From Escherichia phage BF17, in the sequence record MW822008.1: a stretch of DNA of 64,000 bases. One strand, 5' to 3'. The position numbers and the translations under genes were made by a program. Positions 25,765 to 28,373 of this stretch are shown piece by piece (the stretch's first letter is position 1; every line of letters begins with the position of its first letter). The notes under the pieces are model-generated. The model had not been told where the DNA came from, made no database searches, and was given only the letters and a program-made list of their open reading frames with translations.

Positions 25765-26109
25765 ATGAAATACATCGACAAAGGTACAGTTGAAACGCAG
25801 TACTGGAATATTCATATTGCTGGTGATATCCAAACAGCAAGAGAGTACACAAGAAAGTTCACATTCAATCTTGGTTTTTGTGTACAATTGATTCCGTGTG
25901 AATACATCTACACGGGTGGTCTTGAAAGTGGAATGTGTGCTCGTATTATTCAGTACCCACGCTTTCCAAAAGAAGAAGTATATCTCAACCGAGATGTATT
26001 AAACTATGCTAAGGGTTTAGCTGAAGAGTTGTGTCAAAAGAGTTTTACTATTGAGCGAAACAATGATACAATCTATTATGAAAGTGCCAACCCTTTACAC
26101 AAGAAATGA
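25765..26109 (+). CDS. hypothetical protein
   Basis: ATG 25765 with GGAG RBS (ORF track TTG start 25753). Confidence 0.45.
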   Translation: MKYIDKGTVETQYWNIHIAGDIQTAREYTRKFTFNLGFCVQLIPCEYIYTGGLESGMCARIIQYPRFPKEEVYLNRDVLNYAKGLAEELCQKSFTIERNNDTIYYESANPLHKK

Positions 26110-26120
26110 AAGGAAAATAT

Positions 26121-26252
26121 ATGAATGGACTAAAAAAGTTTGGTAAAGATTTTCTAAAGTGCATCCGTTATACATACGATGCCAACCCTGAAATGACTGC
26201 CATCGTGGGTGTGTTTATTACACTCGTTGTATTAAGCTTTATTGTGGTGTAA
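26121..26252 (+). CDS. small membrane protein (43 aa), below the ORF-track size cutoff
   Basis: ATG 26121 preceded by AAAGGAAAA; encodes MNGLKKFGKDFLKCIRYTYDANPEMTAIVGVFITLVVLSFIVV with a C-terminal TM helix; fills the gap between annotated ORFs. Confidence 0.4.
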   Translation: MNGLKKFGKDFLKCIRYTYDANPEMTAIVGVFITLVVLSFIVV

Positions 26253-26255
26253 AAT

Positions 26256-26459
26256 ATGATTGAAATTAATGCTGATGTATATTGTAGTGCATCACCCAAC
26301 TACTTCATTTATGCACTAAGTACATTTGGGGAAACTGAAGGTGAAACTTTTGTTTTAGTAGATAATACTACATGGTACAAAACAAGTAATAAAATTCCGA
26401 AAGATGTTTTGGAAACTTATGTTCGTATTGAAAATAAAAACATATATGTAAATTTATAG
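26256..26459 (+). CDS. hypothetical protein (67 aa)
   Basis: ORF track. Confidence 0.4.
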   Translation: MIEINADVYCSASPNYFIYALSTFGETEGETFVLVDNTTWYKTSNKIPKDVLETYVRIENKNIYVNL

Positions 26460-26466
26460 GTAAAAT

Positions 26467-26877
26467 ATGATTGAAATGGAAGGAACTCTGGTGTATGATC
26501 CAGATCGTGGCACTATGAAAAAGAAGAAGGACTTCTGGTTAGTACTACAACTTCCATTGCAGTTGGTTCGATACTACCAGTACTTCATCAGAACTAACTT
26601 ACATATTGATATTAAAGACCCACAATGGGGAGCACATGTCAGTATCGTTCGTGGTGAAGTGCCACCAAATCCAGAGTACTGGAAAAAGTACGATGGAATG
26701 AAAGTTAAGATTAAGTTCGATCCTTTCATCGAAGAAGTAAAAGACAATAAGAAACCTGGGTCATTCTTTATCATAGAGTTTGAAGATGATTTCATTGCAC
26801 AAATTCGTGATGAACTTGGTTTAGCATCTAAATATTTCAAATATCACATCACCATTGGTAGAACATACTACGATTAG
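26467..26877 (+). CDS. hypothetical protein (136 aa)
   Basis: ORF track. Confidence 0.5.
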   Translation: MIEMEGTLVYDPDRGTMKKKKDFWLVLQLPLQLVRYYQYFIRTNLHIDIKDPQWGAHVSIVRGEVPPNPEYWKKYDGMKVKIKFDPFIEEVKDNKKPGSFFIIEFEDDFIAQIRDELGLASKYFKYHITIGRTYYD

Positions 26878-27044
26878 TGTGGATATTTGGTAAATAGGTC
26901 TTGATATAACTAAAAAGTATGCTATACTACTTAAATGTTCCAAAGAACAACTGAGTACTGTAGAAAGTCCAATGAGGCTTTTGCAAATGGCCTCTTTGCC
27001 CTCTTTGTGATTGCTCATTGTTAACAACCAACAAAGGAGGCGTT

Positions 27045-27971
27045 TTGAAAAAAGCGAAAAAAGCACTGAAAACTAAAATTGCCATAGGCGTGTTAGTTTC
27101 ATCAGCCCTATTCGCTGCGATTGGATTTTATGGTTTTTCTCAAAGTGATCGTGCATCATCATTAGACGAAAGTCAGGTGCATAATTTAAAACCACAAGTT
27201 ACGCAAATTCAAAAGCAGGAACTACCACAGGTATCAGTACCAAAAGCAGTTCCAAGCAGCGAGAAACATTATACGGTTCAACCTGGAGATAGTTATTATT
27301 CTATTGCACAGAAATTTAAACCTAAAAATGTACAGATTGAAGATTATGTCATTTTGTTGAAGAACATCAACTTAAATGCAACTCTTCATACTTCTCAGGG
27401 TATCTTTATCCCAACAAAAGAGGATTTGAAGAACGTATTGTTACCAGATGTGACTGTACTGTTTGATTATAAAGATCCAGAAATTGTCAATCACATCAAA
27501 GAAGCTGAAGGTTCTATTGAATTTCAGTCCAAGAACAAACGACGTTTACTTGGTGGGAAAGTTGGAGTTCCTTTCCACAATTCTAAATTTCATCCCTATA
27601 AGGACATGAAAGGTAATTATACAATTGGTTATGGGCATTATTTGGGTAAGAAAGATTCTGATGCAATGAAGTACAGAAACGGGATTACCAAAGCACAGGC
27701 CAACAAACTTTTAATGCAAGATATGAAAAGGACTTACGAGGACTTTACACTATTGATGCAGAAGAAAGATGCAGTTAATCTGACAAAAGAACAGCAGCGT
27801 ATCCTGTTTGAAATGTCATACACAATGGGCGTTGATAAGTTGGCAACATTTAACAAACTATGGAAAAGTGTTAAAATGGATAACCCTAAGAAATTCAAGA
27901 AAGAAATCATGAATTCCTTGTGGTATCGCCAAGTTACAAACAGAGCGGATTTGTTGTTAAGCTCACTCTAA
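27045..27971 (+). CDS. T4-type lysozyme (GH24-like) with N-terminal membrane anchor and LysM domain
   Basis: TM segment IAIGVLVSSALFAAIGFYGF; LysM-like YTVQPGDSYYSIAQKF; C-terminal YKDMKGNYTIGYGHYL parallels T4 lysozyme YKDTEGYYTIGIGHLL, with candidate catalytic Glu in EAEGS upstream. Start taken as TTG 27045 after AAAGGAGG (ORF track 27018, also TTG). Confidence 0.6.
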   Translation: MKKAKKALKTKIAIGVLVSSALFAAIGFYGFSQSDRASSLDESQVHNLKPQVTQIQKQELPQVSVPKAVPSSEKHYTVQPGDSYYSIAQKFKPKNVQIEDYVILLKNINLNATLHTSQGIFIPTKEDLKNVLLPDVTVLFDYKDPEIVNHIKEAEGSIEFQSKNKRRLLGGKVGVPFHNSKFHPYKDMKGNYTIGYGHYLGKKDSDAMKYRNGITKAQANKLLMQDMKRTYEDFTLLMQKKDAVNLTKEQQRILFEMSYTMGVDKLATFNKLWKSVKMDNPKKFKKEIMNSLWYRQVTNRADLLLSSL

Positions 27972-27986
27972 AAAGGTAGGTAAATT

Positions 27987-28319
27987 ATGCTAAATCTAGT
28001 TATCCAAGGTAATGTTGATATTACTCCAGCAATCAATGACGCAATTCATGCTGAAGCAAATGCACTAACGAAGTTTAGTGATTCTTCAGTACTGCATATT
28101 GGTGTTCATGTGAAGAAAGAGCATAAGAATCAATATTTCGTAACTTTAACATCAGGCGGTAAGAGTGTTACAGCCGATGATGCAGATTTATACAAAGCAA
28201 TTGGTGATTCATTTGAAAAAATGGAAACTGTCTTAGGTAAAGACAAAAGCATCAAATTGTATCGCCGTAACCACCCCGAACATCCAGTTCAAGAAGACTT
28301 GACTGAAGACGAAGAGTAA
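27987..28319 (+). CDS. ribosome hibernation factor homolog (HPF/RaiA/YfiA family)
   Basis: LVIQGNVDITPAINDAIHAE...VHVKKEH...ADDADLYKAIGDSFEKME parallels E. coli HPF/RaiA (NITG.NVEITPAL...VEK..H...DMYAAIDGLIDKL). Confidence 0.55.
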   Translation: MLNLVIQGNVDITPAINDAIHAEANALTKFSDSSVLHIGVHVKKEHKNQYFVTLTSGGKSVTADDADLYKAIGDSFEKMETVLGKDKSIKLYRRNHPEHPVQEDLTEDEE

Positions 28320-28330
28320 GATATAATAAA

Positions 28331-28358
28331 GGGACAGAGATTATTCTGTCCCTTTTCT
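28331..28358 (+). terminator. intrinsic terminator
   Basis: Perfect hairpin GGGACAGA-gattat-TCTGTCCC followed by TTTTCTT. Confidence 0.7.
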
Positions 28359-28373
28359 TATGGAGTTTTAATT

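Follow-up and report, generated by a model that had tools for sequence, protein, structure and literature searches.

A predicted membrane-anchored LysM-lysozyme with a non-ATG start codon and a conserved leader in Escherichia phage BF17

In a stretch of 64,000 nt from Escherichia phage BF17 (MW822008.1; "the window" denotes this whole stretch) we analysed a lysozyme gene located on the plus strand at positions 27045 to 27971. A preliminary description had divided its product into an N-terminal membrane anchor, a LysM domain and a T4-lysozyme-like C-terminal domain, a layout that is borne out by Pfam, PHROGs, a structural model and 66 homologues. We propose that the protein is a signal-anchored, periplasmic LysM-muramidase, the synthesis of which is held down and which serves as a holin-independent endolysin or co-endolysin; in our view this explanation as a whole has about an even chance of being correct. 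The gene and the elements of its product are as follows.

27033 to 27047, plus strand: Shine-Dalgarno sequence AAAGGAGG (27033-27040), 4-nt spacer and TTG start codon, from the sequence
27045 to 27971, plus strand: coding sequence of the predicted membrane-anchored LysM-GH24 lysozyme (308 aa), TTG start, stop codon at 27969-27971
27045 to 27077, plus strand: basic N-terminal tail, residues 1-11 with six Lys, from the sequence and the coinciding N-termini in the alignment
27078 to 27137, plus strand: hydrophobic helix, residues 12-31, from Kyte-Doolittle values, Hessa sums and the model; candidate uncleaved signal-anchor, possibly similar to those of signal-anchor-release (SAR) endolysins
27138 to 27260, plus strand: Q/P/S/V-rich linker, residues 32-72, predicted to be disordered and to form a periplasmic tether
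27267 to 27413, plus strand: LysM-like peptidoglycan-binding module, residues 75-123
27471 to 27968, plus strand: GH24 catalytic domain (T4-lysozyme fold), residues ~143-308
27507 to 27509, plus strand: codon of Glu155, putative general acid equivalent to Glu11 of T4 lysozyme; E155-G156 is invariant and placed by MAFFT on E11-G12
27516 to 27584, plus strand: 23-residue insertion, residues 158-180, IEFQSKNKRRLLGGKVGVPFHNS, from spacing count, MAFFT and model
27603 to 27623, plus strand: Asp187 to Thr193 (DMKGNYT), equivalent to Asp20 to Thr26 of T4 lysozyme according to sequence alignments

The open reading frame as listed spans 27018-27971 on the plus strand, with the start annotated at TTG 27045. 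That only TTG starts are available, as had been noted before, is correct: the in-frame starts located 5' of the hydrophobic segment are TTG 27018 and TTG 27045 and nothing else, with neither ATG nor GTG in frame upstream of this segment. As either TTG retains the hydrophobic segment, a soluble protein would be made from neither, and an upstream start giving a conventional soluble enzyme, which would have overturned the preliminary description, does not occur in this frame. The same TTG start is annotated in the phages vB_Ec-M-J (99% identical), phAPEC6 and UE-S1, the N-termini of 32 aligned homologues match the 27045 start, and the arrangement of GGAGG, 4 nt and TTG or GTG recurs in other genera.

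The window belongs to Asteriusvirus, that is, to a RaK2-like jumbo coliphage. Over its region 26000-29000, identity is 99.2% with Escherichia phage vB_Ec-M-J and 84-98% with ~30 further Asteriusvirus genomes (348-386 kb). Counterparts of the lysozyme open reading frame are EcMJ_264 of vB_Ec-M-J (annotated "lysozyme"), phAPEC6 gp293c and UES1_480 of UE-S1 (annotated "LysM peptidoglycan-binding domain-containing protein"), and further orthologues are CBB_187, GAP32 gp180, 121Q gp532 and RaK2 gp506. Within PHROGs, residues 1-308 match phrog_15410, a family of unknown function (E 1.5e-163).

An AlphaFold2 model based on the 32 aligned sequences has pLDDT (predicted local distance difference test) values of ~88-95 over residues 81-300 and <50 over residues 1-72. 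PF01476 (LysM) matches residues 76-92 with 22.3 bits versus a cut-off of 20.9, only positions 1-17 of the 43 profile positions being aligned, and the model contains a beta-alpha-alpha-beta unit at residues 75-121, as for the LysM fold. For the catalytic domain, PF00959 (Phage_lysozyme) scores 44.5 bits versus a cut-off of 22.3 over residues 182-288. From residue 145 onwards the model predicts a helical/beta lysozyme domain of the T4-lysozyme fold; residues 127-304 align with the tail-lysozyme family phrog_13211 in its C-terminal part, and among PDB sequences the top match is to an 898-aa internal virion protein, in its C-terminal lysozyme domain.

The putative catalytic glutamate, previously pointed out within EAEGS, is E155, which aligns with T4 lysozyme Glu11 and lies at the end of a modelled helix (residues 145-156). 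The GH24 alignment, which could have revealed its absence, shows this Glu to be invariant. In 32 sequences with 45-90% identity to the window protein, E155, G156, D187, T193, G197 and H198 are all invariant, and the equivalents of Asp20 and Thr26 reside in a Y-x-D-x2-G-x2-T-I-G-x-G-H motif. The Glu-Asp-Thr set appears to be intact, its catalytic role being putative. The canonical E-8-D-5-T spacing is not kept: 31 residues lie between E155 and D187, versus 8 in T4 lysozyme, and the insertion of about 20 residues that had been proposed between them counts 23. Because this 23-residue gap has to be crossed, local alignments to T4 lysozyme begin only at residues 182-183; neither hhalign nor phmmer bridged the insertion between Glu and Asp. 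Four positions inside the insertion are invariant among the 32 homologues (Q161, R166, L168 and G171). In the model it forms a short helix (158-161) and strands (166-168, 173-174, 177-178) with pLDDT values of 83-93, and these extra strands are predicted to extend the beta sheet of the T4 lysozyme fold.

When the Glu-to-Asp distance was measured in 216 relatives gathered by two protein searches, the distances formed separate classes of 8 (T4 type, n=73), 21 (n=18) and 30-31 residues (n=74), the last class being the anchored family. A MAFFT alignment including all three classes showed 13 of the inserted residues to be common to the 21-residue class (EGxxxYQ...G.[YF][RK]N.KF.PY.D), while the remaining 10 are unique to the anchored family (KRRLLGGKVG region). 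The insertion noted earlier in the catalytic region is thus real and yet not peculiar to this gene, as 13 of its 23 residues are shared with a wider GH24 subfamily. Members of this "EG-x3-YQ" subfamily have the 21-residue spacing and lack anchor and LysM; they include the 162-aa CBB_239-type lysozyme and the C-terminal domain of a ~890-aa gp5-like tail lysozyme. LysUE1, the member of the 162-aa type encoded by UE-S1, is muralytic in vitro (PMC12805682), so that an enlarged Glu-Asp segment is compatible with activity. Judged from the alignments, the insertion is a hallmark of the subfamily and gives no sign of a defect. All these features of the reading frame, hydrophobic segment and insertion included, recur in 66 full-length homologues with identities as low as 43%, and are therefore not chance features.

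The N-terminal tail is predicted to be cytoplasmic by the positive-inside rule, its six Lys within residues 1-11 suggesting an N-in topology for the transmembrane helix, as in SAR endolysins. Over the 19 residues 12-30 (IAIGVLVSSALFAAIGFYG) the Kyte-Doolittle values average 2.0, and the model places a helix at residues 4-22 with low pLDDT. On a crude scale that ignores position, the Hessa values of the window helix sum to +0.86, with Gly, Ala, Ser or Thr making up 47% of it; the family median is 37% of these residues, the sums in intact Rak2-like orthologues range from -3 to ~+5, and many helices are Leu-rich. One transmembrane segment was annotated in the orthologues by the GAP32 and CBB annotators using TMHMM/Phobius (PMC5259590). 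Some family members carry a Glu within the hydrophobic helix, e.g. AAAFEFIGF (P0019, P0024, P0034, P0040, P0045 and P0054). The distant relatives P0074 and P0077 have a homologous domain of 80-95 aa N-terminal to the helix (E 6e-10), which makes the helix an internal signal-anchor in these two proteins; the N-terminal extension of P0076 has no detectable similarity to that of P0074. The linker following the helix varies in length across the homologue alignment. With ~40 residues it would measure, if extended, an estimated ~14-15 nm, enough to reach the peptidoglycan while anchored. The window lysozyme contains no Cys.

Upstream of the gene, the following elements were recognized.

26901 to 26928, plus strand: sigma-70-like promoter candidate, TTGATA, 16 nt, TG-n-TATACT, a consensus match only
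26959 to 27007, plus strand: conserved leader, from cross-lineage conservation of the upstream region 26935-27044
26959 to 26970, plus strand: invariant leader box TGTAGAAAGTCC, consensus GTAGAAAGTCC
26976 to 26984, plus strand: box complement GGCTTTTGC, invariant GRCTTT(G)TGC
26974 to 26994, plus strand: leader hairpin GAGGC/GCCTC, overlapping the box helix
26991 to 26998 and 27000 to 27007, plus strand: two copies of CCTCTTTG, complementary to the Shine-Dalgarno region

A non-ATG start is the rule in this family. TTG is used in the window, phAPEC6, UE-S1, fHe-Yen9-03, Serratia BF, GAP32, CBB, XbC2 and several metagenomic relatives, GTG in EJP2, Hallingskeid, SE_PL, L017, L055 and L064, and ATG only in RaK2 and the extended P0074. 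Together, TTG or GTG starts occur in ~20 of 22 distinct orthologues, compared with 3 non-ATG starts among 81 neighbouring annotated genes of vB_Ec-M-J. Across genera, the 110-170 nt upstream of the lysozyme gene are better conserved than the protein. RNAalifold joins the box and its complement in a helix of 9 pairs, and the hairpin stem covaries (GAGGC/GCCTC, GCGAC/GTCGC, GTGGC/GCCAC). A search of IMG/VR for the combined leader motif gave 46 hits. In 14 it occurs once per jumbo genome and always 73-105 nt upstream of the lysozyme gene; the other 32 lie on smaller contigs without a lysozyme homologue nearby and are probably due to chance. Pairing of the leader with the ribosome-binding site exceeds that of dinucleotide shuffles in 14 of 17 lineages (z -2.6 to -6.1). 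The folding energy of the whole leader is unremarkable in the window (z = -0.30), and Rfam contains no credible family for it.

Two further ideas about the leader were rejected. One is an RNA switch of five elements (box, 5' arm and 3' arm of HP2, anti-RBS and RBS, the latter denoting the ribosome-binding site): between a forced box helix and a blocked box, the predicted accessibility of the ribosome-binding site did not shift the same way throughout (8 of 18 lineages; means of 0.29 versus 0.32), so this idea is not supported. The other is that the box is a general promoter motif, since there is one exact copy in the window and matches with up to two mismatches are not enriched (10 versus 5.5 expected).

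Better sigma-70 matches than that of the window, likewise by consensus only, are found at the same place in UE-S1 (TTGACT/TATAAT), RaK2 (TTGACA-17-TAAAAT) and L061 (TTGACA-17-TATAAT). In L063, too, such a match lies directly upstream, and in both L061 and L063 a terminator precedes it. A late promoter resembling that of T4 gene e was looked for without success: neither TATAAATA nor ATAAATA is present in 26929-27044 or in the other leaders. The mRNA of T4 gene e is made early and silenced by a helix hiding its ribosome-binding site (PMC3014915). Our leader may be similar, as pairing with the ribosome-binding site is predicted in most lineages; it differs in that the late-promoter arrangement is absent and that occlusion in the window is not statistically distinct.

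The following neighbouring genes and lysis genes are encoded in the window.

17269 to 17643: Rz-like i-spanin (phrog_1152)
17640 to 17948: candidate o-spanin of 102 aa with a lipobox-like IISGC, overlapping the i-spanin gene
27987 to 28319, plus strand: ribosome hibernation factor gene (HPF/RaiA, PF02482), 15 nt after the lysozyme stop codon and probably co-transcribed

The HPF gene follows the lysozyme gene directly in the window, EJP2, Hallingskeid, fHe-Yen9-03, CBB, XbC2, L062 and the distant metagenomic L010, where the adjacency is kept though the catalytic domain is only 40% identical. Its retention across most genera and in L010 suggests that a wall hydrolase is expressed together with a ribosome silencer. 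The gene order is 2H-phosphoesterase-like (26467-26877), lysozyme, HPF, CCA-adding tRNA nucleotidyltransferase and Nudix hydrolase; in relatives an RNA ligase precedes. This conserved block of RNA-repair and translation genes (~26467-30500, and loci L061-L063) is an odd setting for a lysis gene. Directly after HPF, within 28299-28355, we noticed a near-consensus sigma-70 match (TTGACT-17-TATAAT, 11 of 12), which abuts a terminator-like hairpin on the minus strand (28355-28328); this is probably where the lysozyme-HPF unit ends and another begins.

With the spanin pair 9 kb upstream of the lysozyme gene, the lysis genes are dispersed, as in T4. Among seven neighbouring open reading frames there is no holin-like family, nor was a pinholin identified nearby. 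The second gene upstream of the lysozyme gene (26121-26252) encodes a protein of 43 aa whose only hydrophobic helix is C-terminal (phrog_37784, unknown function); this gene is found two to three genes upstream also in GAP32, CBB, Hallingskeid and fHe-Yen9-03, and we regard the protein as a candidate small membrane partner. Coordinates carried over from vB_Ec-M-J (OQ718158.1) are ~627 nt off at the spanins and exact at the lysozyme gene, from which it follows that the two phages differ by an indel in between (17.9-26 kb).

Matches covering at least 80% of the protein were obtained in 70 phage records, which belong to RaK2-like jumbo phages of ~310-386 kb except for one 86-kb Klebsiella phage record; the host genera comprise Escherichia, Klebsiella, Salmonella, Erwinia, Yersinia, Serratia, Pectobacterium, Cronobacter and Xanthomonas. 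When 1.84 billion representative proteins were searched, more distant members with the same layout and the 30-31 spacing were added, and a BFVD fold search returned nothing beyond orthologues. Each phage has three GH24 lysozymes: the 162-aa and ~890-aa types, both present in the same 70-74 genomes, are paralogues of the anchored enzyme that share its catalytic motif.

In the published record, Buttimer et al. (2017) listed CBB_187, GAP32 gp180, 121Q gp532 and RaK2 gp506 as predicted endolysin. They described a transmembrane segment at the N-terminus, a weak wall-binding domain resembling LysM and a lysozyme domain at the C-terminus, remarked on the resemblance of CBB_187 to SAR endolysins, and stated, with the data not shown, that its induction is toxic and inhibits growth of E. 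coli (PMC5259590). Wagemans et al. (2020) detected the 95.9-kDa lysozyme gp241 in phAPEC6 virions by mass spectrometry, but not gp293 (PMC7247149). The architecture of transmembrane segment, LysM and lysozyme is therefore not new. CBB_187, GAP32 gp180, 121Q gp532, RaK2 gp506 and phAPEC6 gp293 are orthologues of the window protein with 48-91% identity and the same layout and neighbourhood, and there is no essential difference from the description of CBB_187, although the Glu-Asp insertion, the conserved non-ATG start, the leader and the link to HPF are absent from that publication (PMC5259590). The conserved weak start, the gene-specific leader and the HPF gene close behind appear to be unreported.

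According to our proposal, the hydrophobic helix would be an uncleaved signal-anchor with the N-terminus inside and the C-terminus outside, and with such an anchor both the LysM module and the lysozyme domain would be delivered to the periplasm by the host Sec machinery, with no need for a holin. The ~40-residue tether would let the anchored enzyme reach the peptidoglycan, where LysM would grip the glycan strands and the muramidase would cut them; the beta-sheet lip enlarged by the insertion probably adds substrate contacts. Since an exported muramidase is dangerous, its synthesis would be held down, through a conserved weak TTG or GTG start only 4 nt after the Shine-Dalgarno sequence and through a leader for which pairing with the ribosome-binding site is predicted. 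Its most likely role would be that of an endolysin, or of a co-endolysin beside the soluble 162-aa paralogue, which would cooperate with the spanin pair as infection ends. The model allows the enzyme to leave the membrane, but does not need it to do so. Several observations support the proposal: the invariance of E155, D187 and T193, the activity of LysUE1 within the CBB_239-type spacing class, the domain preceding the helix in P0074 and P0077, which argues for an internal signal-anchor, the bias towards non-ATG starts, the duplex between leader and ribosome-binding site, and the presence of spanins inside the window (17269-17948). The reported toxicity of induced CBB_187 (PMC5259590) and the fact that phAPEC6 gp293 was undetected in virions (PMC7247149) point in the same direction.

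Other observations weigh against it. Export, topology, activity and a role in lysis are, for every family member, predictions from sequence. The lysozyme gene adjoins RNA-repair and translation genes, neither holin nor spanins, and the sigma-70-type matches in front of it fit early expression better than the timing of lysis. In the window, pairing of leader and ribosome-binding site has z = -1.0 and is no better than that of 15% of shuffles. A soluble T4-type lysozyme of the same phage could be the true endolysin, and signal peptidase might, though improbably, cleave after the helix.

An alternative close to our proposal is a true SAR endolysin, in which a weakly hydrophobic helix exits the depolarised membrane, through a pinholin or spontaneously, and only the released enzyme is lytic. 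The window enzyme resembles the SAR endolysins P1 Lyz, R21 and phiKMV gp45 in that an N-terminal hydrophobic helix would export a phage muramidase without a holin, and P1 Lyz and R21 are of the GH24 type as well. Crude helix hydrophobicity is similar, too: the values of the window helix are near the summed Hessa values of +0.78 for R21 and +0.46 for P1 Lyz, which we calculated for what we take to be their SAR domains. The Glu tolerated in the segment by several family members would also suit this alternative, which was put forward for CBB_187 by its authors (PMC5259590). In SAR endolysins, however, the helix lies immediately next to the catalytic domain, which it governs through disulfide caging or refolding, whereas in the window enzyme a 40-residue linker and LysM intervene and the E-to-D distance is 31, not 8. 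The lack of Cys excludes disulfide caging of the P1 Lyz type. Refolding of the R21 type is unlikely, as Glu155 is located 125 residues beyond the helix and the catalytic domain, 120 residues from the helix, is predicted to be complete without it. Of the two readings in the preliminary description, a SAR or a membrane-tethered lysin, both are possible; what does not hold is a fit to either known way of keeping a SAR enzyme inactive while anchored. In addition, many helices of the family are Leu-rich and clearly hydrophobic (to -3.0), the N-terminal domain of 80-95 aa in distant relatives would need to cross the membrane, and the seven neighbouring open reading frames include no identified pinholin. 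We consider this alternative unlikely and favour a signal-anchored enzyme for which SAR-like release is optional. The endolysin gp22 of phage Mu is likewise membrane-anchored, and its release is not spontaneous but needs the help of a releasin; here, a releasin-like partner was not identified, and the domain content differs. T4 lysozyme has the same fold and catalytic residues as the window enzyme, but is soluble, cytoplasmic and holin-dependent and has an ATG start.

The enzyme might instead be expressed early and remain permanently tethered in order to remodel the wall, with the soluble 162-aa lysozyme acting as endolysin; possible uses would be local loosening of the peptidoglycan for an enlarged cell, DNA entry or exclusion, and turnover. 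The promoter matches directly upstream in several lineages, preceded by a terminator in L061 and L063, would fit, as would the non-lysis neighbours (RNA ligase, 2H phosphoesterase, HPF, CCA-adding enzyme, Nudix), the restriction of the enzyme's reach by tether and LysM, and the existence of a separate active soluble lysozyme. However, the 162-aa paralogue is encoded within the baseplate module beside a gp5-like hub and may thus be tail-associated. The promoter matches rest on consensus only, T4 gene e is transcribed early too, yet acts late (PMC3014915), and induction of the CBB orthologue was reported to be toxic (PMC5259590). Permanent remodelling seems quite unlikely to us.

Less probable still is a cleavable Sec signal peptide, which would leave the mature LysM-lysozyme free in the periplasm. 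An n-region, an h-region and a polar stretch are present, with small residues at possible -3/-1 positions after the helix (AIG/F, GFS/Q, SQS/D). On the other hand, the hydrophobic run of 17-20 residues is long for a signal peptide, a conserved AXA motif is absent from the 32-homologue alignment, relatives have large N-terminal extensions, and, as cited above, the GAP32 and CBB annotators assigned a transmembrane segment to the orthologues. A virion-borne or non-catalytic wall-binding protein, suggested by the best PDB match, the phrog_13211 profile and the label "tail lysozyme" in some records, is very improbable given the invariant Glu, Asp and Thr, and we rejected a virion lysin on the published virion proteomes, as the phAPEC6 orthologue is outside the virion proteome (PMC7247149) and CBB_187 is not in the examined part of the CBB virion protein table (PMC5259590).

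Our finding mainly re-identifies a family already present in the literature. That it represents a distinct type of lysis enzyme is a tentative idea which we think unlikely to hold in full: a holin-independent, membrane-tethered, LysM-targeted muramidase outside both SAR mechanisms, controlled by a non-AUG start and a structured leader (invariant GUAGAAAGUCC box with GRCUUUGUGC, competing hairpin and pairing with the ribosome-binding site) and maybe co-regulated with HPF. If the anchored enzyme is the endolysin, holin-independent lysis would extend past the two known SAR mechanisms, and a LysM-bearing Gram-negative lysin would be on offer for enzyme engineering. The weak start and the dedicated leader provide testable handles on how an exported wall-degrading enzyme may be kept harmless until needed, and the question which of the three GH24 genes encodes the endolysin bears on how the RaK2-like jumbo phages lyse their hosts.

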